From the NCBI RefSeq assembly GCF_017876815.1, contig NZ_JAGIOS010000003.1, positions 330,001-362,000 of the forward strand: DNA of 32,000 nucleotides, given 5' to 3'. Under the pieces are notes generated by a model, which saw only the letters and a list, made by a program, of their open reading frames with translations, did not search any database and had not been told where the DNA came from. Each line of letters starts with the position of its first letter. The first letter of the stretch is position 1. The translations under genes were made by a program, and so were the position numbers. Below are positions 62 through 26,271 of the stretch, one piece after another. This DNA comes from Sinorhizobium meliloti. GTDB lineage: Bacteria > Pseudomonadota > Alphaproteobacteria > Rhizobiales > Rhizobiaceae.

Positions 62-1156
62 TCAGCTGAGCTTGCCGATCATTCCCCTGACGAACCAGTT
101 CATCCCCCGGATGTCGGTATCCGAAAGAACCGACCCGGCAGCGACCTTGGTGTTGCCGTCCTGGTCCTTGAGCTCGCCGGCATAGGGATGGATCTTGCCC
201 GCTGCGATATCGGCTTCGAGCTGCTTCAATTTGGCCTGGATGTCGGCAGGGATCGCCTCGTTATAGGGGGCCATCTTGACCACGCCGGCGGCAAGCCCAT
301 CCCAACGCGCCTCGGCCTTCCAGGTGCCCTCCGCGACGCCTTTTGCGGCACGCAGATACTCACTGGACCAGTCGAGCGTAAAGGCCGTGAGTTGTTTGCC
401 GGAGCCGAACTTGGCCATGTCGCTGGCGTAGCCGATCGACCAGGCGCCGCCTTCGCCGGCCACCTGTACGCCGGTTGCCGTATCGGTCATCGAACAGATG
501 ACGTCGCAGCCTTGCGACAGCAGCGTATTGGCGGCTTCCTTCTCCTTGCCCGGGTCGAACCAGGAGTTGAGGAAGATGGCGTTGCAGGTGACCTCCGGAT
601 TGACGCTCTGCGCGCCGAGAAGAAGCGCATTCGCCGGCCCGACAATGTCCGGGATCGGGAAGCCGCCGATGAAGCCGATCTTGCCGGACTTGCTCATATG
701 CCCGCCGGCAGCGCCCGCGACGAAGGTGCCCTCGTAATATTTGGCCTCGAAGGTGCCGAGGTTTGCGCGGTGCACGATGCCCGAACAGTGTTCGAAGGCC
801 GTCTTGGGGAAGCGCGGCGCCACCTTCTGCATCGGCGTGCCGTGCGAGAAGCTGGTCCCGAAAATCAGCTGATTTCCCGAGGCGGCGAGCTCGCGGAAGA
901 CGCGCTCGGCATCCTGGGGCATGAAGATGTTGTCGATGACCGTTATGGCGACTTTGTCGCCGAATTCCTTCTTGATCGCGTCGACGCCCAGGCTGTGCTG
1001 TTTGGTCCAGCCAATCTCGGCGATCGGCGAGACATAGACGACGCCGATCTTGAGCGGCTCCTCTGCGCCCGCGAAGCTGGCAAGGCTTCCGGTTCCGAGT
1101 GCCACACCGGTCGCGCCGGAATATCGAAGGAATTGTCGTCTGGTCAGGTTGAACAT
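62..1156 (-). CDS. BMP-family (Bmp/PnrA-like) ABC transporter substrate-binding protein with a Tat-type leader
   Basis: 364-aa ORF. N-terminal twin-arginine leader TRRQFLRYSGATGVALG. The body resembles the basic-membrane-protein/nucleoside-binding SBP family (KIGVVYVSPI, GFIGGFPIPDIV, NSWFDPGKEKEAA). An SD-like AAAGGGG lies upstream of the ATG at 1156. Confidence 0.85.
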   Translation of the reverse strand: MFNLTRRQFLRYSGATGVALGTGSLASFAGAEEPLKIGVVYVSPIAEIGWTKQHSLGVDAIKKEFGDKVAITVIDNIFMPQDAERVFRELAASGNQLIFGTSFSHGTPMQKVAPRFPKTAFEHCSGIVHRANLGTFEAKYYEGTFVAGAAGGHMSKSGKIGFIGGFPIPDIVGPANALLLGAQSVNPEVTCNAIFLNSWFDPGKEKEAANTLLSQGCDVICSMTDTATGVQVAGEGGAWSIGYASDMAKFGSGKQLTAFTLDWSSEYLRAAKGVAEGTWKAEARWDGLAAGVVKMAPYNEAIPADIQAKLKQLEADIAAGKIHPYAGELKDQDGNTKVAAGSVLSDTDIRGMNWFVRGMIGKLS

Positions 1157-1209: not shown

Positions 1210-1980
1210 CTATTTCGTGGCGTGAACGTGGCGACCCGCGCCGGTCCAGCCGCTTTCTCCCGTTTTCCTGCGCGGCGCCGGCTTAGGCGCCTCGTCGGCT
1301 TTGCCGTCGAGATAGGGCTGAAGCGCCTCCCGCGGCGTCAGCTCCGGAAAGACCTGCCGATCCATGATATAACCGCGTACGACGCTGCGGTGATGGGTGT
1401 CGATCAGTTCCATGACGGGCTTCAGCCGGCCCTTTTCGAGCAGATCGATCACGCGCTGGTGGTCGTCCAGCAGATTGCAATAGTCGAAATCGGCGGAGAT
1501 CAGTGAGCGCAGGAGCGTGGTGCGCCGCACGAGCTGCGCGTGAATTTCCTGCATGACCTTGTTTCGGCTGAGGCGAACGAAGAGAGTATGAAACTCCTGG
1601 CCGAGAACGTCGGCAAGCGCGTCGTTGCCGGATGCGACGGCCTGGCGTTGCCGCTCCACGTGCTGGCGCAACTCGGCGAAGCCGGCGGGCCCGAGCCGGT
1701 CGCAGAGCTGGGCGGCGACGCCCTGTTCCACGAGCGTCAGCGCGTCGTATATCTCCATCGCCTCTTGCATGCTCGGGCGCGCGACGAAGGCGCCGCGATT
1801 GCGCTCGATCTGCGCCAGCCCGTCGTCGGCAAGCCTGATCAGCGCCTGGCGGATGACGATGCGGCTGACCTCGAAGATTTCCGCAAGTTCGCGCTCGCCG
1901 AGCTTGCATCCGGGTACGAGCCGGTGATCGATGATCGCCCGGGTCAGGATATCGGCAATCGCCTGCGAACGGCTGCTCAT
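1210..1980 (-). CDS. GntR-family transcriptional regulator (FadR/FCD subfamily)
   Basis: N-terminal winged HTH (LGERELAEIFEVSRIVIRQALIRLADDGL) followed by an all-helical FCD-like C-terminal domain. The ORF track starts at 1995 (MERPVMSS). The ATG at 1980 has a well-spaced GGAGAG SD, whereas the 1995 ATG has GGGAG directly abutting it. The start is therefore 1980 or 1995. Confidence 0.85.
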   Translation of the reverse strand: MSSRSQAIADILTRAIIDHRLVPGCKLGERELAEIFEVSRIVIRQALIRLADDGLAQIERNRGAFVARPSMQEAMEIYDALTLVEQGVAAQLCDRLGPAGFAELRQHVERQRQAVASGNDALADVLGQEFHTLFVRLSRNKVMQEIHAQLVRRTTLLRSLISADFDYCNLLDDHQRVIDLLEKGRLKPVMELIDTHHRSVVRGYIMDRQVFPELTPREALQPYLDGKADEAPKPAPRRKTGESGWTGAGRHVHATK

Positions 1981-2131
1981 GACGGGTCTCTCCATCTCCC
2001 GCAGAAAATCTGCGGGACGGTCGCACCGGAATGTTGCATGGCCACATATCCGGCGTTACGAATTCCATATCGGTATTCAATCAAATCAAGCTGTCAATCA
2101 AAAAACACGTTTTGCCATGCAAATTTTCATT

Positions 2132-2146
2132 GATTGGTATCCAATC
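2132..2146. promoter_or_regulatory. Candidate GntR operator: perfect palindrome GATTGG-TAT-CCAATC in an AT-rich divergent promoter region
   Basis: 6-bp arms with a 3-bp spacer, read directly from the sequence. It lies between the divergent GntR gene and the oxygenase operon. Flanking motifs are TCAATCAAA at 2078-2086 and 2094-2102, with a near-complement TTGATTGG at 2130-2137. Confidence 0.4.
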
Positions 2147-2211: not shown

Positions 2212-3078
2212 ATGAGCAGAACTGCCCTTTGTAGCGATCGAGTTCTTCTTAATGACTGGCATGTCGTTGCGGACCTGACGAACCTGTCGTCGACCGCGCC
2301 CTTTCACACCCGCCTGCTCGGTGTTGATCTCACCATCCACTGTGGTGGGCGCTATCGCCGACAGGTGGTTCGCAGCGATGGCGGCGAGCCGGTGAATTCC
2401 GACAGCCGTTACGGTTTTCTCTGGGCTTGTCTCGGCACGCCCGAGCGCGACATCGTCTTCGTGCCGGAGGCGAACGAGGCGGGCCGTTATCTCGTGACCG
2501 GTGGATCGATCGCCGTGAACGTCTCGGGGCTGCGCGCGGTCGAGAACTTCCTAGACATGGGGCACTTTCCTTTCATTCACACGGGCTGGCTCGGTGAGGA
2601 ACCGCACACCGAGGTCGCGCCCTACAAGGTCGAGCTTACCGACGCCGACGAGGTCATGGCGACCGAATGCAAGTTCTATCAGCCGGTCGCATCGCCAACA
2701 GCGAAGGAAGGCTTCGTCGTCGATTACATCTACAAGGTGATCCGTCCGTACACGGTGGCGCTTTACAAGAGCAATCCTGTTCATAAGGCGCGGCTCGACG
2801 TAATCACGCTCTTCGTGCAGCCGGTTGACGAGGAACGCTGCATCGCCCATCCGTTCCTCTGCTACCTGAAGGAAGGCGTCAGCGAGGCCTCGATCCGCAG
2901 CTTCATGCAATTGATCTTCGCCCAGGACAAGCCGATCCTGGAAAATCAGCTGCCGAAAAGGCTGCCGCTTGACCCGCGCGCCGAAACCCCGATCCGAGCC
3001 GATGCCGTTTCCGTCTATTACCGCCGATGGCTGCGCGATCGCGCGGTCACCTTCGGCGCGATCCCGGCCCGGATGTAA
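2212..3078 (+). CDS. Rieske-less oxygenase catalytic subunit (VanA/NdmC-like non-heme Fe domain), paralog 1
   Basis: Mononuclear-iron motif ENFLDMGHFPFIH (D-x2-H-x4-H) at nt 2542-2580. C-terminal FAQDKPILENQ motif (putative third Fe ligand Asp). The N-terminal ~100 aa keep Rieske-fold flanks (NDWHVV..., RYGFLWACLG) but lack the C-x-H...C-x2-H cluster ligands. ATG at 2212 is preceded by GGGAGGG. The ORF-track GTG start at 2191 is less likely. Confidence 0.8.
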   Translation: MSRTALCSDRVLLNDWHVVADLTNLSSTAPFHTRLLGVDLTIHCGGRYRRQVVRSDGGEPVNSDSRYGFLWACLGTPERDIVFVPEANEAGRYLVTGGSIAVNVSGLRAVENFLDMGHFPFIHTGWLGEEPHTEVAPYKVELTDADEVMATECKFYQPVASPTAKEGFVVDYIYKVIRPYTVALYKSNPVHKARLDVITLFVQPVDEERCIAHPFLCYLKEGVSEASIRSFMQLIFAQDKPILENQLPKRLPLDPRAETPIRADAVSVYYRRWLRDRAVTFGAIPARM

Positions 3079-3108
3079 CCGCCTTATGATCAGACGCCAT
3101 TCACGGAG

Positions 3109-4023
3109 ATGAACGACATGAGCCCGACCAAATGCCAGGACCAGGTGGTTCTCGATCTTTGGCACCCGCTGGCGGCGCTGGAGGAGATGCCGGCGAGGAC
3201 GGTTCAGGATACGGTGCTGCTCGAGGAACGCATCAGCTATGTCTCGGACGGCGAAGGCAAGGCGGCCGCCTGGCATTCGCGCCCGGAGCTCCCTGCCGGC
3301 AGCCGGGTCGATATCGATACGCTCGACGGCGGTCTTCCGGTCAAGATGGCCTACGGGTATATCTGGACCTCGCTGGGCACGCCGCCGGCCGAGCTGTTCG
3401 CGATTCCGGAATATGCGGAGTCTGACCGTCGCAGACTGAATGCTGCCAGCATCGGCGTCAATGTCTCGGCGCCGCGCGCGATCGAGAATTTCCTCGACAT
3501 GGGCCATTTCCCCTATGTCCACACCGACATTCTCGGAGCCGAACCGCACACGGAGGTCAAGGAGTACGACGTCGAGCTTTCGGTCGAGCGCGATGAGATC
3601 GTCGCCACGCGCTGTCGCTTCTTTCAGCCGATGGCCTCGACCGCATCGACCGGCGGTGCCGATGTCGAGTACATCTATCGGGTGCCGCACCCCTACTGCT
3701 CGGTGCTTTACAAATCCAGCCCCGTCGACGAGAGCCGCCTCGACGTCATCGCCGTTTTCCTTCAGCCGGTCGATCAGGAGCATGTCCGCGCGCATATGAT
3801 GCTCTGTGTCCTCGACGAAGAGAACGAAGACAAGGTGATCAAACGCTTCCAGCAAACGATCTTCGGCCAGGACAAGCCGATCCTGGAAAACCAGTTTCCG
3901 AAGCGTCTCCCGCTCGACCCGCGGGCCGAGACGCCGATCCGCGCCGACAAGTCTGCGATCGCCTACCGCCGTTGGCTCAGCCAGAAGGGCGTGACCTACG
4001 GGGTCATCCCGGCCGCCACCTGA
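3109..4023 (+). CDS. Rieske-less oxygenase catalytic subunit (VanA/NdmC-like), paralog 2
   Basis: IENFLDMGHFPYVH at nt 3481-3522 and FGQDKPILENQFPKRLPLDPRAETPIRAD. The latter is nearly identical at protein level, and partly at DNA level, to paralog 1. There are no Cys/His Rieske ligands in the N-terminal third. The alternative start ATG 3118 has better spacing to GGAG. Confidence 0.8.
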   Translation: MNDMSPTKCQDQVVLDLWHPLAALEEMPARTVQDTVLLEERISYVSDGEGKAAAWHSRPELPAGSRVDIDTLDGGLPVKMAYGYIWTSLGTPPAELFAIPEYAESDRRRLNAASIGVNVSAPRAIENFLDMGHFPYVHTDILGAEPHTEVKEYDVELSVERDEIVATRCRFFQPMASTASTGGADVEYIYRVPHPYCSVLYKSSPVDESRLDVIAVFLQPVDQEHVRAHMMLCVLDEENEDKVIKRFQQTIFGQDKPILENQFPKRLPLDPRAETPIRADKSAIAYRRWLSQKGVTYGVIPAAT

Positions 4024-4047
4024 CGTTTCAGAATTCTGGAGAGAACG

Positions 4048-5814
4048 ATGCTCGATACCGCCAAGACCAGATGGCATCCCGTTGCCGCATCCTATGATCT
4101 GCCGTTCCGCCACATCTTTCATGCCCAGTTGCTCGGCCGCGAGTTCGCCGTCTGGCGTGCCGACGACGGCTACGTCAATATCTGGGAGAACCGCTGTCTG
4201 CACCGCGGCGTCCGCCTTTCGATCGGCATCAACGATGGCCGTGAGTTGAAGTGCCAGTATCATGGCTGGCGCTATTCCAACCGCACCGCCGGCTGTACCT
4301 ATATTCCGGCGCACCCGGCCGACGCTCCGGCCCGCACCATTACCAACCGTACCTTTGCGAGCGTCGAGCGCTATGGCCTCGTCTGGACGGCGGAGGAGCC
4401 TCAAGGGGACGTGCCGGAAGTTACAGGCCTCGCCGAAGGCGATCTTCTCACCCTTCGCGGCATTCCGGTCAATGCGCCGGCCGATGTCGTGGTGGCGGCT
4501 CTGACAGGCTACCGCTTCCAGCCGAACGGCCGCCTCGAAGGCAGAGCGGCGGATATGTCGCTAAAGGCGAGCGACGGCTTCTCGGTGGCGCTCACGGCCC
4601 GCGAAGAGGGCGCCGAGACGCTTGCCGTGTTCTTCGTCCAGCCGGTCGACTCCAACCGTTCGGTCATCCGCGGCGTACTCGATTCCTCGCCGCGCGGCGC
4701 CGAGCGGCTTACCGTCCTGCACCACCACAACGAACGGCTTTCGAAGCTTCGCGAGATCGTGGAGCGCGAGGCTCAAGCCGCACCGCAGCCGGCGCCGCTC
4801 GAGCCGGTGATCGAGCGCGTTTCGCCGGAACTGGCCGAGCTGCCGGAGATGACCGCCCACGGCCGCAAGGCGACGATCCGTGTCACGGTCGCGCGAAAGT
4901 GGATGGCCGCGGACGGGATCGCGGCGTTCGAGCTTCGCCCGATCAAGGGCCTGCTGCCGACTTTCCAGCCCGGCGCCCATATCGACGTGCACATGCCGAA
5001 CGGGCTGATCCGGCAATATTCGATCACCAATGGCCCGGGCGAAAGCGACAGCTACGTCATCGGGGTCAAGCTGGAACGGGAATCGAAGGGCGGCTCGCGA
5101 TGCATGCATGAGACGCTTCGCGAGGGCGACGTCCTGGCGATTTCGGAGCCGCGCAACAATTTCCCGCTGCGTCGCGATGCCGAGAAGACGATTTTCGTCG
5201 CCGGCGGCATCGGCGCCACGCCGCTGATTGCCATGGCACAGGCTCTTAAGAACCAGAGCCTGGACTTCGCCTTCCACTACTTCGCCCAGAACCAGGCACA
5301 GCTCGCCTTTCCGGAAAAGACCGCTCTCCTCGGCGAGGCGCTGAAGCCCCAGCTCGGGCTCGACCCGGAAGGGACTGCCGCTAAGCTCAAGGACATTCTT
5401 TCCGGGTATCGGCCCGGCATGCATGTCTATCTCTGCGGTCCGGGGCCTATGCTCGAGGCGGCGCGCCGGATCGCTGCGGAGGTCGGCTGGCCGGAAACTG
5501 CGGTGCATTTCGAGTATTTCAAGAACACCAATACGATAGACGACAGTTCGAGCTTCGAGGTGGCGCTGGCGCGCTCCTGCGTGACATTTAAGGTGCCGGC
5601 CGGCAGGACCATCCTCGATGTGATGCGCGAAGTCGGGATCGACATGCCGTCATCCTGCGAGCAGGGTGCCTGCGGCACCTGTCTTGCGACCGTGATCGAG
5701 GGTGAGCCCGATCACCAGGACGTCTATTTGAACGACGCCGAGCGCAAGTCCGGCACCAAGATCATGACCTGCGTGTCGCGCGCCAAATCCGCGCGCCTCG
5801 TCCTCGATCTCTAG
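4048..5814 (+). CDS. Fusion protein: N-terminal Rieske [2Fe-2S] domain + degenerate oxygenase-like middle domain + phthalate-dioxygenase-reductase-type module (flavin/NAD(P)H binding + plant-type [2Fe-2S]); NdmD-like
   Basis: Rieske ligands C50-L-H52 (CLHRG) and C69-Q-Y-H72 (CQYHGW). FNR-family motifs RQYSITN and GGIGATP. C-terminal ferredoxin motif CEQGACGTC plus a downstream Cys (IMTCVS). GGAGAG SD before the ATG at 4048. Confidence 0.85.
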   Translation: MLDTAKTRWHPVAASYDLPFRHIFHAQLLGREFAVWRADDGYVNIWENRCLHRGVRLSIGINDGRELKCQYHGWRYSNRTAGCTYIPAHPADAPARTITNRTFASVERYGLVWTAEEPQGDVPEVTGLAEGDLLTLRGIPVNAPADVVVAALTGYRFQPNGRLEGRAADMSLKASDGFSVALTAREEGAETLAVFFVQPVDSNRSVIRGVLDSSPRGAERLTVLHHHNERLSKLREIVEREAQAAPQPAPLEPVIERVSPELAELPEMTAHGRKATIRVTVARKWMAADGIAAFELRPIKGLLPTFQPGAHIDVHMPNGLIRQYSITNGPGESDSYVIGVKLERESKGGSRCMHETLREGDVLAISEPRNNFPLRRDAEKTIFVAGGIGATPLIAMAQALKNQSLDFAFHYFAQNQAQLAFPEKTALLGEALKPQLGLDPEGTAAKLKDILSGYRPGMHVYLCGPGPMLEAARRIAAEVGWPETAVHFEYFKNTNTIDDSSSFEVALARSCVTFKVPAGRTILDVMREVGIDMPSSCEQGACGTCLATVIEGEPDHQDVYLNDAERKSGTKIMTCVSRAKSARLVLDL

Positions 5815-5824
5815 GAGCTGCCCG

Positions 5825-6472
5825 ATGATCACCCTCTACGATTACGAACTCTCGGGCAACTGCTACAAGCTCAGACTTCTGATGAGCATGCTCGGCATCG
5901 AGTACAAGACGGTACCGGTCGATTTCTATCCCGGCCGCGAACACAAGTCGGATTGGTTCCTGAAGCTCAATCCGCTTGGACAACTCCCGGTGATCGAGGA
6001 TGACGGACTGGTGCTGCGCGACGCGCAGGCGATCCTCGTCTACATCGGCTCCAAATATGATCCTTCCGGCACCTGGTATCCGCGTGACAACCCGGCGCTG
6101 CTCGGCGAGATCAGTCAGTGGCTCGCCTTTGCGGACGGGATCACGGGCACGGCTTCGGCCGCGCGTCTCCATGACGGCCTGTTCTACGAACTGGACGTCG
6201 AGGCGGCTCGGGCCGGTGCGCATAGGCTGTTTCGCATCCTCGACGAGCATCTCTGGTTCGGCGAGCAGGAAGGGCGCGACTGGATCTGCTCGGCCCCACA
6301 CCCGACCGTCGCTGACATCGCCTGTTTCCCCTACATCATGCTGTCGGAAGAGGGGGGCATTCCCCGGCAGGACTATCCGGCAATCCGTCGTTGGTGCGAT
6401 CGCCTCAAGCGGATCAAAGGCTTCACGGTCATGTCGGGGATTTTTCCTGCCGGCCCGGCGCGTGCCGCTTGA
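5825..6472 (+). CDS. Glutathione S-transferase family protein (positional NdmE analogue)
   Basis: 215-aa ORF with a thioredoxin-like N-terminal domain (LYDYELSGNCYKLRLLMSMLGIEY, LNPLGQLPVIEDDGLVLRDAQAILVYI) and a helical C-terminal domain. It starts 10 nt after the reductase stop, and an AGGAG overlaps that stop. Confidence 0.85.
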   Translation: MITLYDYELSGNCYKLRLLMSMLGIEYKTVPVDFYPGREHKSDWFLKLNPLGQLPVIEDDGLVLRDAQAILVYIGSKYDPSGTWYPRDNPALLGEISQWLAFADGITGTASAARLHDGLFYELDVEAARAGAHRLFRILDEHLWFGEQEGRDWICSAPHPTVADIACFPYIMLSEEGGIPRQDYPAIRRWCDRLKRIKGFTVMSGIFPAGPARAA

Positions 6473-6672: not shown

Positions 6673-7785
6673 CTACGGCAGAACTGCCGCGATCGCTTCG
6701 GCCAAGCGATCGACATTCTCGATCCGACAAGTCTCGCCCATCAGTCCGATGCGCCAGATGCGCCCGGCGAGCGGCCCGAGTCCTCCGCCGATCTCGATCC
6801 CGAATTCGTCAAGCAGCCGTCTTCGCTCGGGCACGTCCTTCACGCCTTCCGGGAGCCAAACCGTATTCAGCTGCGGCAGTCGGTGCTCCTTGTCGACGAC
6901 TAAGGCGATGCCCAGCCCTTGTAACCGTTCGACCAGCCGGTCATGGGCGGCGCGGTGACGCGCCCAGGCAGTCTCCAAGCCTTCGCCCAGCAGGCGGGAA
7001 AGGCTTTCGTGCAGGCCGTAAAGCGCATTGACCGGCGCGGTGTGGTGATAGGATCTGGCACCCTCCCCCTCCCAGTACCCAAGCATAAGACCGAGATCGA
7101 GGAACCAGCTCTGGATTGGCGTCTTGCGCGCCTTCACTGCCGAGACGGCGCGATCGGAAAAGGTGATCGGCGCAAGGCCTGGCGGCGCGGACAGACATTT
7201 CTGCGTACCGGCATAGACGGCGTCCGCCTGCCATTCGTCAACCGACACCGGAATCCCGCCGAGGCCCGTAACGGTATCCACGACCGACAGCAACCCCGCT
7301 TCGCGCGCGAGGGCACAGAGGGAGGCCGCATCCGATCGCACTCCGGTCGAAGTCTCCGCGTGCACGAAAGCGAGCAGCTTGGCCTGCGGTGCCTCCAGAA
7401 TCGACGCGCGAACCGCCTCGGGGTCAACAGGCTTGCCCCATTCGACGGAAACCAGCCGTACCTCCGCGCCCGCGCGCCGGGCAATTTCGGCCATGCGTCC
7501 TCCGAACACGCCGTTTTGCGCGATGATGGCGGTGTCGCCTGGCTCGAGCAGCGTCACCAACGCCATCTCCATGGCGAGCGATGCCGGGGCCGATAGGGGG
7601 AAAGTCACACGGTTATCTGTTCGGAAAGCGAGGCGGAGTTGATCCTTGATGCGGTCCATCAATCCCACGAAGCTGGGGTCGAGATGGCCGATCGTCGGTC
7701 GCGCCTGTGCCGCGAGCACTTCCGGCGAGACGTTGGAGGGACCGGGGCCCATCAGCAGGCGGGGCGGCGGGGAAAAAGCATTCAT
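6673..7785 (-). CDS. Class V PLP-dependent aminotransferase (serine/alanine-glyoxylate or AEP-pyruvate aminotransferase-like)
   Basis: N-terminal LLMGPGPSNV. Putative PLP-lysine context AVYAGTQKCLSAPPG. HAETSTGV motif. Typical length of 370 aa. Confidence 0.85.
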   Translation of the reverse strand: MNAFSPPPRLLMGPGPSNVSPEVLAAQARPTIGHLDPSFVGLMDRIKDQLRLAFRTDNRVTFPLSAPASLAMEMALVTLLEPGDTAIIAQNGVFGGRMAEIARRAGAEVRLVSVEWGKPVDPEAVRASILEAPQAKLLAFVHAETSTGVRSDAASLCALAREAGLLSVVDTVTGLGGIPVSVDEWQADAVYAGTQKCLSAPPGLAPITFSDRAVSAVKARKTPIQSWFLDLGLMLGYWEGEGARSYHHTAPVNALYGLHESLSRLLGEGLETAWARHRAAHDRLVERLQGLGIALVVDKEHRLPQLNTVWLPEGVKDVPERRRLLDEFGIEIGGGLGPLAGRIWRIGLMGETCRIENVDRLAEAIAAVLP

Positions 7786-8743: not shown

Positions 8744-9667
8744 TTAAGCATCTCGCGTTCCCTCGGAATCTGGTGTGCCATGGTGTCGCAGGGCGTCCAC
8801 GATCACCTTGAATGCGGGTGAGTTGTGGTGTCGGCTAGGGTAGTAAATGTAGTACCCGGCAAACGGAGGCGACCAGGGCTCGAGCAGCGCTACCAGGCGT
8901 CCTGCCGCAATGTGCCCCGCGACGAGATCTTCCGGCAGATAGGCTATGCCGTGACCTTTCATGGCGGCATCGACCATGGGGTATGAGCTATTGAAGGTGA
9001 GTTGTCCGTCGACCCTGACGCGGAGCTCTTGCCCGTTCTTCTCGAACTCCCATACATAATGTCCGCCGCCTGTTGCCTGGCGCGAGTTGATGCAATTGTG
9101 CTGGATCAGTTCCTGTGGATGCTCTGGCAACGGACGATCTGCCAGGTAGTCGGGCGAAGCCACTGCCAGAAGCCGCCAGTCCGGTCCGATACGGACCGCG
9201 ATCATGTCCTTTTCGACGCTCTCGCCGAGGCGAATGCCTGCGTCGAAACCATCTTCCACGATGTTCCTGAAGCCGTTGTCCCTGCTCAACTCGAGCCGAA
9301 TGTCGGGGTATTCCAGAAGAACCGGCTGTAGTTTCGGCCAGACGAGGCTCTCCAGGGCGTGGTCGGACAAAGTGATTTTGACCGAGCCGGACGGTTTGTC
9401 GCGAAAGGCCATAAGGGCCGCGATTTCGTCCCTTATGGCCGATATCCGCGGCGCCAGCGAACGAAGCAGGCGCTCGCCAGCTTCCGTCACGGCAACGCTC
9501 CGGGTGGTCCTGGTCAGAAGCCTCAGGCCCATCCTCGTTTCGAGGCGCTTGATCGTGTGACTGAGCGTCGATTGGGTTATGCCGAGCTTGGCAGCGGCCC
9601 TGGTGAAGCTGCGCTCCTCGGCCACGGCGAGAAACCACAGCAGATCGTTGAAGTCTTCCTTGGGCAT
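8744..9667 (-). CDS. LysR-family transcriptional regulator
   Basis: N-terminal HTH (FLAVAEERSFTRAAAKLGITQSTLSHTIKRLE) plus a LysR substrate-binding domain. Divergent from the Mo-hydroxylase operon. Confidence 0.9.
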   Translation of the reverse strand: MPKEDFNDLLWFLAVAEERSFTRAAAKLGITQSTLSHTIKRLETRMGLRLLTRTTRSVAVTEAGERLLRSLAPRISAIRDEIAALMAFRDKPSGSVKITLSDHALESLVWPKLQPVLLEYPDIRLELSRDNGFRNIVEDGFDAGIRLGESVEKDMIAVRIGPDWRLLAVASPDYLADRPLPEHPQELIQHNCINSRQATGGGHYVWEFEKNGQELRVRVDGQLTFNSSYPMVDAAMKGHGIAYLPEDLVAGHIAAGRLVALLEPWSPPFAGYYIYYPSRHHNSPAFKVIVDALRHHGTPDSEGTRDA

Positions 9668-9826
9668 ACTCTACATCCGCACGCTCGATTTATGGTTCAT
9701 GTCGATAGATGTAAGAGAACTATGCCCACTAATCCATAGGCTATGCTTTTGCTACCGTCCCAGCTGAAACAGTTTGCTCGCTGTTTCCGCGCCCGTTTTC
9801 CCGCAAGCTGCATTGAGGACACCGCC

Positions 9827-10273
9827 ATGGAACTCACCACCAACGGCTTTAGACACCAGGTGGACATCGAGCCGGATACGCCGCTGCTCTGGGTTCTTCG
9901 CGATGAACTCGGCATGACCGGAACCAAATATGGTTGCGGCCTCGCCCAGTGCGGCGCCTGCACGGTTCTCGTCGACGGACAGGCGACGCGCTCCTGCGTC
10001 ACTGCGGTGGAGAGCGTTGCCGGTTCCGAGATCATGACCATCGAGGCCATCACCGAAGATCCAGTGGGCCAGAAAGTAGTCGAGGCATGGGTTTCCAATC
10101 AGGTACCTCAATGCGGCTACTGTCAGTCGGGCCAGGTCATGGCCGCGACGGCGCTCATAAAGCAGAGTCCTCGGCCGAGCGACGAGGACATTGCCGGCGC
10201 AATGATCAATCTCTGTCGCTGTGGCACCTATAACGCCATTGCGGCTGCCGTCCGGCAGGCCGCTGAGGCTTGA
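9827..10273 (+). CDS. (2Fe-2S)-binding small subunit of a molybdenum hydroxylase (IorA/CoxS-like)
   Basis: Motifs GCGLAQCGACTV and CGYCQSGQ. ATG at 9827 is preceded by GAGGAC. The ORF-track start at 9743 adds an implausible 28-aa extension. Confidence 0.85.
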   Translation: MELTTNGFRHQVDIEPDTPLLWVLRDELGMTGTKYGCGLAQCGACTVLVDGQATRSCVTAVESVAGSEIMTIEAITEDPVGQKVVEAWVSNQVPQCGYCQSGQVMAATALIKQSPRPSDEDIAGAMINLCRCGTYNAIAAAVRQAAEA

Positions 10274-10287
10274 TCGGGAGCGACACC

Positions 10288-12531
10288 ATGAACGACATGA
10301 CACCGGTTACCTCTGAAATCACTGCCAGCGAGATCGGCAAGCCCTTCAAGCTTTCTCGGCGAGGCTTTCTCGGCGCCTCGCTCGGCGCCCTCGTCCTCGG
10401 CGTCACTCTTCCGGCCGGCCGGGCCAGAGCGCAGGCAGCCGCTGCGGCCATAACGCCCGGCACCCGGATTTCCGCATTTCTGGAGATCCTGCCCGACGAG
10501 ACCGTCCTGTTCCGCAGTGCTTTCATCGAGGGAGGGCAGGGCATATTCACCGCCATGGCGCAGATCGTCGGTGAGGAACTGGACGTCGACCCGATGCAGT
10601 TCGTCGTCGAAGGCGCGCCTCCGGGTCCCGATTATCTGCTGACCGGCGGCGGGCGGTTCACCGGCGGCAGCATGTCCGTGCGCATGAGCTACGACGCCAT
10701 GCGTAAGCTCGGCGCTTCCGCGCGCCACATGCTCATTCAAGCCGCTGCGGTACGGCTGCGCGTGCCGGTATCGGAGCTGTCGACGGAGCCCGGCCGCGTC
10801 GTGCACGGCGCTTCGGGGCGGACCCTTCCATACGGTGAGATCGCGGATGCGGCAGCGGGCTTGCCGCTCCCCACCAATGTCGTGCTGCGCGCTCGCGCAG
10901 ACTTCCGCTGGATCGGCAAGCCGGTCGCGCGGCTCGATGTGCGCGACAAGTCGACGGGCAAGGCTCGGTACGCAATCGATTTGAAAGTCGACGGAATGCT
11001 GCATGCCGCGGTCCAGCACAGCCCGCGTCTCGGTGGCGAGCCCGGTGCTTTGCAGAATGAAGCGGACGTGCGCGGCATGCCCGGCGTCCATTCCATTCAC
11101 AGCCTGCCCGGCACCGTCGCCGTGGTCGCCGATAGCTGGTGGCGCGCGCGCATGGCAGCCGAAGCCCTGCAGGTGACCTGGACGGAGCCGACTCGCGGAA
11201 CGGCCCACGTCATGCCGGCGGATTTTTCCACCGAGGCGCACATGGCGATGCTGAAGGCGACGCCGGGGGAGGGCGTCGCCTACGAGACCGTCGGGAATGC
11301 TGCAACAGCGCTTGGTGATGCTGCGCGGGTGGTCGAGGCGACTTATGACGCGCCATATCTGGTGCATGGGCAACTCGAGCCGCCATCCGCGCTTGCGCGC
11401 TGGAACGACGACGGCTCGCTCGACCTCTGGGTTCCCAATCAGGCACCGGAGATGTTTCAGGCAGAGGCCGCGAAGGTAGCCGGCATCGCGCCGGAGAAGG
11501 TCACCATCCACTCGCCGATGCTCGGCGGCTTCTTCGGGAGGCATTTCCTCTATCAAACGGCCAATCCGTTCCCACAGGCGATCCTGCTTGCAAAGGCTGT
11601 CGCTCGGCCGGTCAAACTCATCTGGAGCCGCGAGGAGGAGTTCCTGCGAGACACCCTGAGGCCGATGGGCGCCGTTCGTTTCCGCGCCGGGCTCGACGCC
11701 GAAGGATTGCCGGTGGCACTGGAGGCGGTGGCGGTGGGCGAAGGTCCGACGGGCCGCTGGTTCGGCCGCCAGCCGGACAAGGTCGATAGTTCTTCCGTCG
11801 AGGGCATTGCGGGCAAAGTCTATTCGATCCCCAACCGGCATGTCGGCCAGGTTCATGTGGACGACCCCACGATCATCGGCTTCTGGCGGTCCGTCGGTCA
11901 CTCGATGAACGACTTCTTCTACGAGACGTTCTTCGACGAGATGGCCGATGCGGGTCAGCAGGATCCTTACGAATTGCGGCGGCGTCTCCTCGCGGACAGC
12001 CCGCGGCACAGAGCCCTGCTGGAAGCCGTGGCCGAGCTCTCCGGCGGTTGGCGGCGAGGACCGTTCATGGCGGACGACGGCACGCGCCGCGCCCGGGGCG
12101 TGGCCATGGCCTCACCCTTCGGCAGCGAGGTGGCGACGATTGCCGAAGTGTCGTTGCGGAGCGGCGAGGTCGTCGTGCACGACGTCTGGGTGGCTATCGA
12201 TCCGGGCAGTATCGTCAATCCGGCGATTATCGAGGCACAGGTGAACTCGGCCGTCGCGCTCGGACTTTCCTCGGCTTTGCTGGAAGAGGTCGTCTATGTC
12301 GACGGCATGCCGCAGGCCCGCAACTACGATGGCTATCCGATTTTGACGCCGGATCGCATGCCGCGGGTTCATGTGCGGATCGTAGCAAGCGGCGCTCCCA
12401 TGGGCGGCATTGGCGAGCCCGGTTTGCCCGGGGTGCCTCCGGCCATCGCAAACGCCGTTTCCGTTCTGGCAGGCCGGCGCGTTCGAAGCCTGCCGCTGTC
12501 CAAACACGATTTCAAAGGAGTCGACGGTTGA
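10288..12531 (+). CDS. Molybdopterin-binding large subunit of an aldehyde/isoquinoline oxidoreductase-type hydroxylase (IorB-like), Tat signal
   Basis: Twin-arginine leader SRRGFLGASLGALVLGV. ~750 aa with xanthine-dehydrogenase-family blocks by eye. Probable start ATG 10288 after GGGAG. The ORF-track start 10270 overlaps the upstream stop. Confidence 0.85.
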   Translation: MNDMTPVTSEITASEIGKPFKLSRRGFLGASLGALVLGVTLPAGRARAQAAAAAITPGTRISAFLEILPDETVLFRSAFIEGGQGIFTAMAQIVGEELDVDPMQFVVEGAPPGPDYLLTGGGRFTGGSMSVRMSYDAMRKLGASARHMLIQAAAVRLRVPVSELSTEPGRVVHGASGRTLPYGEIADAAAGLPLPTNVVLRARADFRWIGKPVARLDVRDKSTGKARYAIDLKVDGMLHAAVQHSPRLGGEPGALQNEADVRGMPGVHSIHSLPGTVAVVADSWWRARMAAEALQVTWTEPTRGTAHVMPADFSTEAHMAMLKATPGEGVAYETVGNAATALGDAARVVEATYDAPYLVHGQLEPPSALARWNDDGSLDLWVPNQAPEMFQAEAAKVAGIAPEKVTIHSPMLGGFFGRHFLYQTANPFPQAILLAKAVARPVKLIWSREEEFLRDTLRPMGAVRFRAGLDAEGLPVALEAVAVGEGPTGRWFGRQPDKVDSSSVEGIAGKVYSIPNRHVGQVHVDDPTIIGFWRSVGHSMNDFFYETFFDEMADAGQQDPYELRRRLLADSPRHRALLEAVAELSGGWRRGPFMADDGTRRARGVAMASPFGSEVATIAEVSLRSGEVVVHDVWVAIDPGSIVNPAIIEAQVNSAVALGLSSALLEEVVYVDGMPQARNYDGYPILTPDRMPRVHVRIVASGAPMGGIGEPGLPGVPPAIANAVSVLAGRRVRSLPLSKHDFKGVDG

Positions 12532-13124: not shown

Positions 13125-13692
13125 ATGACGAATCCAACATTCGGCGAGACAATCGTCAAAACCGCCGCGGCCTGGGGCGCAGTGGCGTCCATGGCGCTGT
13201 GCGTTGCAGTGCTGATCGCTTCGGAATTCATGCCGGTCAGCCTCCTGACGCCGATCGCCCGTGATCTTGGTATGAGCGAGGGCCAGGCCGGACAGGCGAT
13301 TTCGATCTCCGGTCTGTTCGCCGTGTTGACCAGTCTCTTCATTGCGGGGTTCACGCGGAAGATCGACCGCAAGTTCGTCCTGTCCTCGTTCTCGCTCATG
13401 CTGATCGTCTCGGGGCTCGTCGTATCCTTCGCCCCCAATTACGCGGCTCTGATGGTCGGTCGGGCGCTGCTCGGCGTTGCCATCGGCGGATTCTGGTCGA
13501 TGTCCACCGCGGTCGTCATGCGCCTCCTGCTGGAGAGTGCGGTGCCGGAGGGCCTTGCGTTGCTGAATGCCGGCAACGCTATCGCTGCCACGATCTCCGC
13601 TCCGCTCGGCAGCTTTCTGGGATTACATCGGCTGGCGGGGCGCGTTCTTCTTCGTGGTTCCGCTGGCGCTCATTGCGCGCCGCGGGTCTTGA
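13125..13692 (+). pseudogene. MFS transporter remnant (N-terminal ~6 TM), frameshifted near 13620 and truncated
   Basis: The first ~165 aa are MFS-like (LTPIARDLGMSEGQAGQAISISGLF, GRALLGVAIGGFWS). After ...GSFLG the expected continuation DYIGWRGAFFFVVPLALIA is present only in the +1 frame (13621-13677). That frame stops at 13690-13692. No second six-helix half follows. Confidence 0.7.
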
Positions 13693-13754
13693 TCGGCGGC
13701 GCCATCACCAGGGCCGTACTGCCGCGCCTGGTATGGGCTCAAAAGGAGACTAAC

Positions 13755-14105
13755 ATGAAGATGCGCATTGCCTTTGCCGATCACGTGTTCACGGCTACGC
13801 TCTACGACAGCCCCCCGGCGCGCGACCTCTGGTCGATGCTCCCGCTCGAGCTGGAGATCGACAATTACGCCAACAACGAGAAGATCGCCTATCTGCCCCG
13901 AAAGCTGACGGAGGAAGGCAGCGGTTCGTTCTCCAACGAAGCCCCGGGCGACCTCTGCTACTATGCTCCCTGGGGTAATCTGGCATTCTTCTACGCTGGC
14001 TATCGCTACTCGGCCGGTCTGATCCGGCTTGGCCGGCTGGATGGCGGCGTCGAACCTTTGCTCACACGCGGAAAGTTTCCACTCCGCATCGAACGACTGT
14101 CCTGA
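13755..14105 (+). CDS. Small cyclophilin-like-fold protein (116 aa)
   Basis: MKMRIAFADHVFTATLYDSPPARDLWSMLPLELEIDNYANNEKIAYLP...GDLCYYAPWGNLAFFY resembles the cyclophilin-like superfamily of small proteins. It has its own AAGGAG SD at 13743-13748. It shares a frame with the upstream remnant, which explains the fused track ORF. Confidence 0.65.
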   Translation: MKMRIAFADHVFTATLYDSPPARDLWSMLPLELEIDNYANNEKIAYLPRKLTEEGSGSFSNEAPGDLCYYAPWGNLAFFYAGYRYSAGLIRLGRLDGGVEPLLTRGKFPLRIERLS

Positions 14106-16586: not shown

Positions 16587-16821
16587 GGAAATCCAGCCTT
16601 GAAACGATGACCTGTGCCGCCGGCGGATCTCTGCCGGCGCGGCTCCAGTTTAGGGACGGGCCGTTTTTTGCAAAGCTGCGTAATGCGGGAAATCGGGCCC
16701 TTTTGTCATCGGATGGACAAATAAAACGAGGTCATTGATCTCGCAATTTTCGTTTGTTGCGCGGCAAGTTCCGGCTAGTTTGAAATCGGCCCTTTCCGGC
16801 ATCGAGCCAACGGGTCACCGG

Positions 16822-17709
16822 TCAGCCGATCACCTTCTGAGCCTCGGCGATGATCCAGTCGCGCACCTTCGAGACGGTCGTTCCTTTCGACGCCTGTCCT
16901 TCGGCGAGGTAGTAGTTCCACGCGCTCCTGGTGCGGATCTGAAACGGCTCGACGAGCAGGCCGCGATCCACATAGGTCCGCGCGAGCGACTGGGTGGTCA
17001 CGATGCAGCCGGCGCCGCTCGCCGCCATTTCCAGCGCGATATTGGTGGAATTGGTGGAAAGCCGCTTGTCGTTTGCGGATGCATCTATGCCGAGCGCATC
17101 GGCCATTTCCTGCCAGAACTCCTGCCGCCCGTGCACGGCGATCCAATTCGATTTAAGAACGTCGGCCGGCGTCCTGATTGCATTCTGGCCGTGGACGAGC
17201 TGGGGCGCGCATAGAAGCACAAGCCGGTCGTTCCACAATTGCATGCCGCTTGCCGGCATGTTGTCGAATCGTCGGATCGAAATCAGGATGTCGGCGATTT
17301 GCTCGGTCGAATCCTCCCAGATCGTACCGTGCAGAAGGATTTCCACGTCGGGATGTTTCCTGCTGAACCCGGCCACGCACCTTGCCAGCCAGTTTTCGGC
17401 AAGGCTCGTTGGGCAGGAGATGACGACGGTTTTGTTGCGTGCCGACGCAAGAACCGCTTCCGTAGCGAAATCGATCTGGTTCAGAGCCTGGCGCAGGGTG
17501 GGAAGAAAGGCCTCGCCCATCTCGGTCAGCTTGAGGCTGCGCGGATAGCGGATGAAGAGCTGGCGCCCGAGATATTGCTCGAGCGCCCGCACATGATTGC
17601 TGATGGCGGCCTGCGTATAGCCCAGTTCGCTGGCCGCCTCGGTGAAGCTGAGATGCCGGGCAGAGCACTCGAAGGAGCGGATGTAGTTCAATGGCGGCGG
17701 CGGCTTCAT
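16822..17709 (-). CDS. LysR-family transcriptional regulator
   Basis: HTH SFECSARHLSFTEAASELGYTQAAISNHVRALE. Start taken at MKPPPPLNYIRSF (ATG 17709, preceded by GGGAA). The 35-aa upstream extension in the track ORF (to 17814) is atypical for LysR proteins. Confidence 0.85.
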   Translation of the reverse strand: MKPPPPLNYIRSFECSARHLSFTEAASELGYTQAAISNHVRALEQYLGRQLFIRYPRSLKLTEMGEAFLPTLRQALNQIDFATEAVLASARNKTVVISCPTSLAENWLARCVAGFSRKHPDVEILLHGTIWEDSTEQIADILISIRRFDNMPASGMQLWNDRLVLLCAPQLVHGQNAIRTPADVLKSNWIAVHGRQEFWQEMADALGIDASANDKRLSTNSTNIALEMAASGAGCIVTTQSLARTYVDRGLLVEPFQIRTRSAWNYYLAEGQASKGTTVSKVRDWIIAEAQKVIG

Positions 17710-17753
17710 CTGAAGTTCCCTTTTGTGCGACGCTAGCCTGCCCGCTCCGGCAC

Positions 17754-17766
17754 TTGCAAGACGCAA
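17754..17766. promoter_or_regulatory. Candidate LysR box (T-N11-A): TTGC-AAGAC-GCAA
   Basis: Inverted repeat TTGC/GCAA with a 5-nt spacer, 13 nt in total, in the 224-bp divergent region between the LysR gene and the MttB-family gene. A CCATG-A-CATGG palindrome and a T8 run follow at 17772-17790. Confidence 0.35.
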
Positions 17767-17933
17767 GCGTGCCATGACATGGTTTTTTTTGGGCATTGCC
17801 GCCGAACTTATCATGTGAAGACCGGTGCATCATTGGCCATAGTTTCGGTGAGCGGAACAGAAAAAGCACAAGTATTCGGAGCAGGCCTTCTGTGGCCTAG
17901 CTGCGCGGATCAGGGGATGAAAGGCAGTTCTCG

Positions 17934-19469: not shown

Positions 19470-19476
19470 GGGGCAG

Positions 19477-20469: not shown

Positions 20470-20560
20470 TGAAGCCGCGCGGATTCTGGCATAGATCCTG
20501 CGGAATCGGCGCAAATGCGCGCTCCGACTCTTCTCCATCCTGCTGGAAAAGGAGAATGTC

Positions 20561-22545: not shown

Positions 22546-22566
22546 CGAGCGTTGATAGGGGCACGC

Positions 22567-22610
22567 ATCAGAGCGGAAGGCCGGGTGTTCCGCCTGCATC
22601 CCGCTCTGAT
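22567..22610 (+). terminator. Candidate intrinsic terminator or large intergenic hairpin
   Basis: Perfect 10-bp arms ATCAGAGCGG / CCGCTCTGAT enclose a 24-nt segment with its own short helix. TTATT follows. It lies 21 nt after the isochorismatase stop. Confidence 0.5.
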
Positions 22611-22695
22611 TTATTGGAATCGGTCACGCGCATGGTTTCAGGTCGAACCGGCCTGAGACATCGTGATGCAGTTTAGGAGAGGCAGGCGGCAACGA

Positions 22696-25222: not shown

Positions 25223-25245
25223 CAAAATGAGAGAGAGGAACTGAA

Positions 25246-26136: not shown

Positions 26137-26167
26137 AACGCGCCGCATTTATCGACGAACGTCTCGT

Positions 26168-26194
26168 CCCGCCTGCAGGTTTCCTGCCGGCGGG
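26168..26194 (+). terminator. Intergenic GC-rich hairpin after the SBP gene (possible attenuator or terminator)
   Basis: CCCGCCTGCAGG-TTT-CCTGCCGGCGGG. 12 positions with 1 mismatch and a tight loop. No U-tract, so read-through into the enolase gene is plausible. Confidence 0.35.
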
Positions 26195-26271
26195 CGGGAA
26201 GGATGCGTGCCGGAGAACCCGGCGCAGATATACCGGATCGGCCGTGCCGGCCGTCTTTTCGAGGAACGAGA

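Follow-up and report, generated by a model that had tools for sequence, protein, structure and literature searches.

An NdmCDE-type Rieske oxygenase cassette with two catalytic paralogues in Sinorhizobium meliloti: a candidate methylpurine N-demethylase

Introduction

How would a Rieske oxygenase work when its catalytic subunits carry no Rieske centre, and on what substrate would it act? These questions are raised by four consecutive genes of Sinorhizobium meliloti, here called g1 to g4, which encode two Rieske-less oxygenase subunits, a Rieske–reductase fusion and a protein related to glutathione S-transferases (GSTs). The genes lie in a 32,000-nucleotide stretch of DNA (contig NZ_JAGIOS010000003.1, positions 330,001 to 362,000), which is called the window throughout and to which the coordinates refer; it is 100% identical to the pSymA-type megaplasmid NC_017327.1 of S. 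meliloti SM11. To our knowledge, NdmCDE is the only characterised Rieske oxygenase that has its Rieske centre on the reductase and needs a GST-like partner. In this system the Rieske-less NdmC works with NdmD, a reductase bearing the extra Rieske centre, and with NdmE, which is needed for solubility and activity, in the N7-demethylation of 7-methylxanthine (PMC4408171, PMC13237722). The NdmCDE structure was still unsolved in May 2026, and Gst9 from Janthinobacterium sp. Marseille functionally replaces NdmE (PMC13237722).

Here, we report that the S. meliloti cassette shares the domain architecture, the homology and the gene order of NdmCDE, and that its conserved surroundings are of a purine type. 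We put at roughly 0.6 the probability that the cassette, together with a divergent regulator and transporter gene, forms an NADH-dependent N-demethylase divergon of the NdmCDE type, with a methylated purine base as the likeliest substrate class. Clusters homologous to ndmCDE, with unknown function, had been noted in 18 organisms, 'predominantly Sinorhizobium and Mesorhizobium' (Summers et al., 2013, as reported in PMC4408171); the central insight of an initial annotation of this locus, made from its sequence, was therefore already in the literature. In the searchable literature we found no account of the conserved second catalytic paralogue, of the complementary deletions and the unfused genes that speak for a split alpha subunit, of the extreme conservation of the GST or of the purine-type context, and a search with the Sm1021 locus-tag prefixes SMa147-150 returned nothing relevant on function.

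Results

Architecture of the cassette and its relation to NdmCDE

The initial annotation had described four co-directional genes separated by 30, 24 and 10 nucleotides: two oxygenase subunits with mononuclear-iron motifs and without Rieske ligands, a fusion of an intact Rieske centre with a phthalate dioxygenase reductase (PDR)-type module, and a GST. Each of these points is borne out by the coordinates of the open reading frames (ORFs), all on the plus strand, and by the domain and motif searches (Table 1). The longest ORF for g1 begins at GTG 2191; because AGGGAGGG stands just before ATG 2212, the latter is the likely start. None of the four proteins is claimed by an NCBIfam model.

In g1 and g2, Pfam finds VanA_C only (1.9e-20 and 2.6e-21), without a match to a Rieske domain at E<=0.01, and a regular-expression search detected no C-x-H...C-x2-H pattern in either protein. 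The iron motifs ENFLDMGHFPF/YxH and QDKPILENQ are present. A multiple alignment with the intact NdmA and NdmB shows that a stretch of about 55 residues holding both Rieske ligand pairs is deleted in g1, g2 and NdmC, which retain the strands flanking the deletion and the full iron site; in g1, a vestigial Rieske fold without ligands accompanies an intact 2-His-1-carboxylate site. Full-length comparison with the NdmC orthologue gives 45.6% identity for g1 and 46.9% for g2; with intact NdmA/B, the identity falls to 21–29%. As the NdmC and NdmE references we used orthologues from a Pseudomonas contig (L089) whose NdmD is 80% identical to that of P. putida CBB5, and UniProt NDMD_PSEPU served as the NdmD reference. 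The best matches of g2 in the PDB, SxtDIOX/SxtT at 1e-25 and NdmA at 1e-12, cover the catalytic domain only.

The Rieske centre is found on g3 instead. Besides its Rieske domain, Pfam identifies an NAD-binding/DmmA-like_N module and Fer2 (residues 510–580, 4.7e-16), and the motifs CLHRG...CQYHGW, RQYSITN, GGIGATP and CEQGACGTC are all present. The Rieske ligands, C50-x-H52 ... C69-x2-H72, are invariant in 28 orthologues and 18 family representatives, and the domain is functional-looking by sequence. Against NDMD_PSEPU, g3 is 38% identical (E 1e-132) and collinear over residues 7–588 of both 588-residue proteins; its Rieske module shares 52% identity with the corresponding part of NdmD and 26% with an NdmA-like Rieske domain. 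Ordinary class IA oxygenases carry the Rieske centre and the mononuclear iron on one alpha polypeptide. In the cassette the two are apart, since g1 and g2 have no Rieske centre and the N-terminal module of g3 has no iron ligands; the reductase is nevertheless of the ordinary class IA kind, residues 276–588 of g3 being a complete PDR module with flavin mononucleotide (FMN) and NAD(H) binding and a plant-type [2Fe-2S] ferredoxin. The fourth protein, g4, shares 62.7% identity with the NdmE orthologue and 65.2% with Gst9, nearly the 68.7% that these two share with each other, and the best ordinary GSTs in the PDB match it at about 1e-19.

A coherent and widely distributed family

A search of 1.84 billion cluster representatives returned about 20 clusters (50% identity) of full-length Rieske–reductase fusions, below which the ranking passed to ordinary reductases of about 320 residues. 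The counts given here and below refer to at least 42 fusion loci, which comprise those among the matches listed and those reached by homologue search. They come from Alpha-, Beta- and Gammaproteobacteria and from Actinomycetota (Nocardioides, Streptomyces, Saccharopolyspora and Acidimicrobiia). A Rieske-less NdmC-like gene is present in 41 of the 42 loci and a GST gene likewise in 41, where it directly follows the fusion and completes the order C-D-E; one locus lacks the NdmC-like gene and one the GST, and both are contigs that end at that point. The order g2-g3-g4, with its 24- and 10-nucleotide gaps, is this same C-D-E order, as it occurs in the Pseudomonas caffeine cluster and in Janthinobacterium. 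Its constancy across phyla argues for one coherent, widely distributed family. With identities of 46–47% (g1 and g2), 38% (g3) and 63–65% (g4) to the respective Ndm proteins and with this synteny, the assignment of the cassette to the NdmCDE type in the initial annotation stands.

At 99% identity or more, the cassette occurs in 46 Sinorhizobium plasmid records, including pSymA of Sm1021 at about 828 kb, and it is therefore a real and stable locus. Pseudomonas sp. Cab53 (AP021902.1, locus L003, 9075–12425) holds orthologues of g2, g3 and g4 that are about 84% identical to those of S. meliloti and fall well inside the rhizobial clade; they are adjoined by a Tsx channel, a BMP-family ATP-binding cassette (ABC) transporter and an intact NdmA-like oxygenase. 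The sequences suggest a recent horizontal transfer of this module from Rhizobiales.

An alpha subunit apparently split between two polypeptides

Between its Rieske domain and its reductase module, g3 has a linker of about 150 residues. In the AlphaFold2 (AF2) model, residues 126–250 have a predicted local distance difference test (pLDDT) score of 75–92 and form an antiparallel sheet followed by a long helix. With this model as a Foldseek query, whole alpha subunits of SxtT/GxtA (311–329 residues) align over 272–305 columns at E~1e-14, a span that far exceeds the roughly 120 residues of the Rieske domain alone. A sub-threshold sequence match, collinear with this superposition, joins g3 190–233 to SxtT 236–279. 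In the alignment, the His-x4-His and Asp ligands are missing from the N-terminal modules of both g3 and NdmD. Our reading is that the linker may be a reduced oxygenase catalytic-domain fold that has lost its iron ligands.

Naturally unfused versions of the fusion also exist, in which a standalone Rieske-plus-linker protein of 220–247 residues (g3 1–240) and a reductase of 315–322 residues (g3 276–588) are encoded by separate genes. In Pseudaminobacter soli (locus L046, 5924–9089), for example, a 224-residue protein corresponding to g3 1–240, an NdmC-like oxygenase, a GST and a 322-residue reductase corresponding to g3 277–588 are encoded together, and similar arrangements occur in Leisingera, Pseudooceanicola and two metagenome-assembled genomes (MAGs) (loci L045, L048, L053 and L066). 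Because these loci encode both modules separately, NdmD can be regarded as a fusion of the two. As judged from the sequences and the model, NdmD would thus be a Rieske-only pseudo-alpha subunit fused to a PDR-type reductase, and the NdmC-like proteins would be the complementary, iron-only half. In some Rhodobacterales loci two unfused modules stand side by side, one of them with the divergent iron motif DNVIDNAHFPF[LV]H.

Purine-type context and the likeliest substrate

A substrate-binding protein (SBP) of the BMP family is encoded upstream of the cassette on the opposite strand. Permease genes are annotated upstream in strain R28, with permease and ATPase beyond the start of the window, and the SBP is the probable uptake component of this transporter. 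Its closest solved relatives are AtzT (6pi5, 1.2e-94) and 3s99 (9.4e-90). The affinity of AtzT is 110 nM for guanine and 2.5 uM for adenine, and the model of 3s99 contains adenine (PMC6834077). The aromatic sandwich of the AtzT pocket (Trp50 and Trp199) and its Ser102-Phe103 pair are kept in the SBP. Such neighbours are common in the family: a BMP-family SBP accompanies 25 of the 42 fusion loci, a xanthine/uracil permease seven and Tsx four, so that 31 have at least one of the three. A guanine-deaminase-family amidohydrolase occurs in the flanks of five loci (L007, L015, L019, L029 and L032); in Mesorhizobium kowhaii (L007, 11457–12824), the gene directly after the GST is a guanine deaminase by an NCBIfam equivalog model (413 bits against a cut-off of 375.4). 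The characterised relatives NdmA, NdmB and NdmC all demethylate methylxanthines (PMC4408171). It is this combination of purine-type SBP, permease and deaminase genes with relatives that act on methylxanthines that makes methylpurine N-demethylation the likeliest function.

Several observations weigh against this assignment. The first group concerns the catalytic subunits: g1 and g2 are only about 46% identical to NdmC and fall into clades separate from genuine NdmC, they carry QDKPILENQ around the Asp ligand where NdmC-clade proteins have QDLMILxNQ, and SxtT/GxtA, the closest solved relatives of the catalytic domain, are C–H hydroxylases rather than demethylases. Given the variant motif and the separate clades, the exact specificity and regiochemistry of NdmC should not be assumed for g1 and g2. 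The second group concerns the transporter. AtzT also binds 2-hydroxyatrazine (2.2 uM) and ammeline (0.36 uM) (PMC6834077), and three polar contacts of AtzT are altered in the SBP (Glu165->Asp, Asn218->Met and Asn220->Asp); owing to these altered contacts, the ligand of the SBP is probably a modified purine and not guanine itself. The third group concerns g3. Its reductase module is 43.5% identical to that of NdmD and 50–54% identical to some standalone PDR-type reductases. The closer relation to NdmD than to PDR reductases that the initial annotation had implied thus holds for the Rieske module and the overall architecture, which tie g3 to NdmD, but not for the reductase module, which by itself shows no specific likeness to NdmD. 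The overall quality of the AF2 model is only moderate (mean pLDDT 68), the linkers of g3 and NdmD show no similarity on their own in a pairwise comparison, and pairwise BLAST of the N-terminal part of g3 against g2 detected only the first Rieske strand. As pairwise similarity fails, the interpretation of the linker as a dead catalytic domain rests on AF2, Foldseek and the family alignment. Finally, no later paper that assigns a function to the rhizobial clusters was found in the searchable literature.

The same architecture could serve another N-heterocycle, the enzyme hydroxylating or N-dealkylating an s-triazine, a pterin, a cytokinin-type N6-alkyladenine or a plant alkaloid. This is the alternative that survives best, although we consider it unlikely. 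The relationship of the catalytic domains to saxitoxin C–H hydroxylases, the triazine ligands of AtzT, the three altered pocket residues and the position of g1 and g2 outside the genuine NdmC clade would all be in its favour. However, the sole characterised members of the Rieske-less clade and their nearest intact relatives (NdmA/B/C) are purine N-demethylases, and xanthine/uracil permeases, Tsx and guanine deaminase recur near the loci of the family. We therefore retain a methylated purine as the likeliest substrate class.

Two catalytic paralogues, g1 and g2

The initial annotation had described the cassette as having a duplicated catalytic subunit. There are indeed two paralogues, but at 49% identity to each other g1 and g2 do not represent a recent tandem duplication, and g1 belongs to an old clade of its own. 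In a rough neighbour-joining tree of NdmC-like proteins, g1 forms a monophyletic clade whose members occur solely in tandem g1-g2-g3-g4 loci of nine sampled species (hosts include S. meliloti, Mesorhizobium sp. CC13, Aminobacter aganoensis, Hoeflea, Primorskyibacter, a Paracoccaceae MAG and Rhizobiales and Rhodospirillales MAGs). In the same tree, g2 lies in the main clade, which adjoins every fusion in Alphaproteobacteria and Actinomycetota, and genuine NdmC groups with beta- and gammaproteobacterial sequences, apart from both. The g2 type is present alone, without g1, in S. medicae, Agrobacterium Kerr14, Labrys, M. kowhaii and Pseudomonas sp. Cab53.

In every member of the g1 clade the iron motifs ENFLDMGHFPF[IV]H and FAQDKPILENQ are unchanged, and the orthologues of g1 (54–92% identity) have diverged at about the same rate as those of g2 (61–95%). 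For these two reasons we regard g1 as a constrained and presumably catalytic paralogue. It probably supplies a second demethylase specificity, for position or substrate, while sharing g3; this would fit the several g1-less loci in which a further intact NdmA-like oxygenase, accompanied by its own reductase, takes the place of g1.

A purely structural g1 has to be weighed against this. Rieske oxygenases of the class to which g1 and g2 belong form alpha3 trimers in which the Rieske centre of one subunit feeds the iron of its neighbour. If g1, g2 and the N-terminal module of g3 formed a pseudo-alpha3 heterotrimer, only the subunit beside the single Rieske centre would turn over. The resemblance of the g3 module to a whole alpha subunit would suit such an assembly, as would the fact that g1 occurs only alongside g2 and never replaces it in the alphaproteobacterial and actinobacterial clade. 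Nevertheless, a purely structural subunit would not be expected to keep its iron ligands and the motifs around them invariant, 33 of the 42 fusion loci have a single NdmC-like protein, and the additional NdmA-like oxygenases of g1-less loci suggest a second activity for g1. A structural role is thus improbable, and a second catalytic specificity remains our preferred explanation of g1.

In S. medicae, DNA similarity to the window starts within the last 160 or so nucleotides of g1 (window 2915–3078), where an ORF of 37 codons is found (locus L004, 7961–8074); this suggests that g1 was lost by a lineage-specific deletion within Sinorhizobium. In Sinorhizobium sp. K101, C101 and M103 and in one S. 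meliloti plasmid, too, the match extends over only 64% of the g1–g2 region. A g1–g2 query has two matching places in NC_003037.1 and NC_020527.1 (pSymA of Sm1021 and Sm2011) and in NZ_CP021798.1, and one in most other strains, which hints at a second, partial or diverged g1–g2 copy on pSymA of the 1021 lineage.

The GST-like protein g4

Among the components of the cassette, g4 is the most conserved: its 63–65% identity to NdmE and Gst9 compares with 46% for the catalytic subunits and about 37–38% for the reductase, and across 51 homologues or loci the median identity to g4 is 64%. The family keeps an N-terminal Ser/Cys motif (YELSGNCYK) and the cis-Pro loop. On the other hand, the canonical Glu-Ser of the site for the gamma-glutamyl group of glutathione is replaced by Asp-Ala throughout the family (LRDAQAILVYL), and the copies in Streptomyces cavernicola and Saccharopolyspora elongata (locus L040, 9709-, and locus L025, 9708-) have an 11-residue deletion that removes the glutathione-binding loop PGREHKSxxF. 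These loop-deleted genes still lie directly downstream of the Rieske–reductase fusion, in a C-D-E operon. The protein thus belongs to a distinct, highly conserved GST subfamily, and the replacement and the deletion together favour a structural, non-catalytic role. A structural, non-catalytic role has also been postulated for NdmE (PMC4408171, PMC13237722).

It is doubtful that g4 is instead a glutathione-dependent catalyst, which might trap formaldehyde or the carbinolamine or reduce the enzyme rather than act as a scaffold. The strong conservation of g4, its GST-typical motif and cis-Pro loop, and the glutathione-dependent formaldehyde detoxification encoded in the caffeine cluster could be taken as signs of catalysis; the family-wide loss of the Glu-Ser contact and the retention of loop-deleted copies in C-D-E operons speak against it. 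Moreover, actinomycetes use mycothiol instead of glutathione.

The divergent regulator and its candidate operators

A GntR/FCD-family regulator gene is divergent from the oxygenase operon. The same arrangement has been kept in S. medicae, Labrys, Mesorhizobium, Aminobacter, Hoeflea and others, and GntR genes also occur in the Janthinobacterium cluster and the Pseudomonas caffeine cluster. The intervening DNA holds a perfect inverted repeat and a second operator-like site (Table 1), and both are good candidates, on sequence grounds, for GntR operators. The 13-mer core of the repeat, ATTGGTATCCAAT, recurs with 0–2 mismatches at the equivalent position in eight of 11 scorable GntR-linked loci. 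It is identical in Hoeflea and in a Rhodospirillales MAG, where it is the sole copy in the locus; a form with one mismatch, ATTGATATCCAAT, is found in S. medicae, Labrys, Mesorhizobium CC13 and Aminobacter, and two mismatches are found in Primorskyibacter. The second 13-mer, ATCGGTATTCAAT, occupies a matching position in S. medicae, Mesorhizobium CC13 and Aminobacter, which makes four loci with S. meliloti. Simple scans for an intrinsic terminator and a convincing sigma-70 promoter of the operon found neither, the sole terminator-like match being the operator palindrome itself.

Neighbouring genes in the window

Table 1. Features of the window discussed in the text. A point in the strand column marks a site without strand.
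Feature	Coordinates	Strand	Basis or remark
BMP-family (PnrA-like) ABC substrate-binding protein, with twin-arginine translocation (TAT) signal	62–1156	-	Pfam Bmp 4.9e-43
GntR/FCD-family regulator, divergent from the oxygenase operon	1210–1995	-	Pfam GntR 9.4e-18, FCD 1.7e-16
Second operator-like site, ATCGGTATTCAAT	2069–2081	.	64 nucleotides upstream of the main palindrome
Perfect inverted repeat GATTGG-TAT-CCAATC, core ATTGGTATCCAAT	2132–2146	.	About 65 nucleotides upstream of g1
g1, Rieske-less NdmC-like oxygenase, accessory paralogue	2212–3078	+	Pfam VanA_C alone
g2, Rieske-less NdmC-like oxygenase, probable core catalytic subunit	3109–4023	+	Pfam VanA_C 2.6e-21
g3, Rieske and PDR-type reductase fusion, 588 residues	4048–5814	+	
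g3 residues 1–125, Rieske [2Fe-2S] domain	4048–4422	+	Pfam Rieske, residues 9–90, 2.8e-16
g3 residues 126–275, linker domain, predicted reduced helix-grip fold	4423–4872	+	AF2, Foldseek, alignment
g3 residues 276–588, phthalate-dioxygenase-reductase-type module	4873–5814	+	2pia 1.7e-65
g4, NdmE-type GST-like protein	5825–6472	+	Pfam GST_N, GST_C_2
Dimethylglycine (DMG)-dehydrogenase-like flavoprotein	14166–16586	-	Catabolism island
MttB-family methyltransferase	17934–19469		Catabolism island

Two further links were considered and rejected. The AGXT-family aminotransferase gene that follows the cassette (6673–7785, minus strand) is convergent with it and is absent near the cassette in other genera, and weak NCBIfam matches of the SBP and the aminotransferase to pyridoxine (vitamin B6) catabolism score far below the cut-offs.

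Window positions 8744–12531, 2–3 kb downstream of the cassette, encode a LysR-regulated IorA/IorB-like molybdenum hydroxylase of the xanthine-dehydrogenase/aldehyde-oxidase family: a LysR regulator (8744–9667, minus strand), a 2Fe-2S protein (9743–10273, plus strand) and a molybdenum-cofactor subunit (10270–12531, plus strand), followed by a cytochrome c. The M. kowhaii cassette is also adjoined by a molybdenum hydroxylase with a cytochrome c domain (L007, 13008–17065). It is possible that such an enzyme is linked to the cassette, for example through N-heterocycle hydroxylation.

At 13125–14105, the window has one ORF of 326 codons that joins the N-terminal half of a major facilitator superfamily (MFS) transporter (residues 24–166) to a cyclophilin-like domain (216–323). 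Strain R28 has two overlapping genes at the equivalent place, for a full-length MFS transporter of 409 residues and a cyclophilin-like protein of 156 residues, and SM11 may carry a deletion or frameshift here.

A quaternary-amine/one-carbon catabolism island occupies 14166–26200. In addition to the flavoprotein and the methyltransferase of Table 1, it encodes LysR and GlxA/AraC regulators, a creatinase/prolidase-like M24 protein, an isochorismatase and a glycine-betaine-type ABC transporter. That the cassette belongs to this island and acts on a quaternary amine or betaine (trigonelline, stachydrine, glycine betaine or carnitine) is highly improbable: these genes, and the existence of class IA betaine Rieske demethylases (with weak GbcA/GbcB matches in NCBIfam), would be in keeping with it, but the genes are separate units with their own LysR/GlxA regulators, more than 7 kb away and partly on the other strand, synteny between them and the cassette is lacking in S. 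medicae, Agrobacterium, Labrys, Mesorhizobium, Pseudomonas or Janthinobacterium, the NCBIfam betaine-oxygenase models score far below their cut-offs, and the conserved partner of the cassette is the purine-type BMP transporter. Being separate and non-syntenic elsewhere, the island is uninformative on the substrate, and the betaine and trigonelline that the initial annotation had included among the substrate options give way to the purine-type context.

Discussion

The questions posed at the outset can be answered with a proposed scheme. In this scheme, the locus would be a divergon, with the GntR regulator and a purine-type BMP importer on one strand and the four-gene monooxygenase operon on the other. 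The importer would take up the substrate, which might be 7-methylxanthine or a 7-methylguanine-type compound. Electrons would pass from NADH to FMN and the plant-type [2Fe-2S] cluster in the C-terminal part of g3, then to the Rieske [2Fe-2S] cluster in its N-terminal part and finally to the mononuclear Fe(II) of g2 or g1, which would hydroxylate the N-methyl group so that it leaves as formaldehyde. The alpha subunit would be divided into complementary halves, an iron-only NdmC-like half and a Rieske-only half made of the N-terminal 250 or so residues of g3 and fused to the PDR-type reductase. Of the two NdmC-like proteins, g2 would be the core catalyst and g1 a second catalytic subunit on the shared Rieske–reductase. 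By analogy with NdmCDE of P. putida, g4 would be an obligatory and probably structural partner.

A bolder interpretation, which we offer as speculation and consider unlikely as a whole, is that the module serves a widespread salvage of methylated purines from nucleic-acid turnover (7-methylguanine and 7-methylxanthine), caffeine degradation being a late specialisation. The enzyme would then be a pseudo-alpha3 assembly of half-inactivated alpha subunits held in register by a non-catalytic GST, and the unfused loci would represent intermediates.

These observations present the NdmCDE architecture as a coherent multi-phylum family with an invariably linked and unusually conserved GST. The subtype with two catalytic subunits and the unfused versions provide material for solving how the complex assembles and why it needs the GST, and the search for the rhizobial substrate is narrowed to methylated purines by the conserved transporter of purine type and by the guanine deaminase found at some loci. 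The paralogue, the split alpha subunit, the GST and the purine context thereby make the questions of substrate, assembly and GST role directly testable for the whole family. If the proposed function is true, it would define a route for nutrient use or salvage in rhizosphere bacteria that had not been characterised before, and the enzymes could provide new regiospecific N-demethylases for methylxanthine biocatalysis.

Comparison with known systems

The closest counterpart is NdmCDE of P. putida CBB5, with which the cassette shares a Rieske-less subunit, a Rieske–reductase of 588 residues, an NdmE-type GST, the C-D-E order and a nearby GntR gene. There are, however, distinguishable differences. 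The cassette has two catalytic paralogues, which belong to sister clades and have QDKPILENQ in place of QDLMILxNQ; its locus has neither the NdmA/NdmB partners nor frmA/frmB; and its transporter is of the BMP ABC type instead of a xanthine permease with Tsx. A Pseudomonas caffeine-type cluster (L089), for comparison, comprises two intact NdmA/B-like oxygenases, Tsx, GntR, a xanthine permease, NdmC, NdmD, NdmE and formaldehyde-detoxification genes. The cluster of Janthinobacterium sp. Marseille resembles the cassette in having a stand-alone GntR gene and C-D-E without NdmA/B, and its Gst9 is 65% identical to g4, but its one NdmC-like gene belongs to the clade of genuine NdmC, and the transporter that follows the cluster is a xanthine/uracil permease instead of a BMP ABC system.

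Among the systems with solved structures, NdmA and NdmB, which work with NdmD (PDB entries 6ICK and 6ICL), share the catalytic fold, the iron motifs and the reductase family with the cassette; unlike g1 and g2, they carry their own Rieske centre, and the identity is 21–29%. SxtT/GxtA (SxtDIOX; PDB entries 6WN3 and 6WNC) are the best solved matches both to the catalytic domains of g1 and g2 (1e-25) and to the Rieske domain of g3 (2e-21 to 4e-22), and their whole alpha subunit superposes on the N-terminal module of g3. In contrast to the cassette, they are single-chain alpha subunits with both cofactor sites, catalyse C–H hydroxylation and have no GST partner. Ordinary PDR/VanB-type reductases match g3 276–588, but they have about 320 residues and lack the N-terminal Rieske-plus-linker module. 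AtzT and 3s99 share the aromatic sandwich and the Ser-Phe contacts with the SBP of the window, which differs from AtzT at the positions of Glu165, Asn218 and Asn220.

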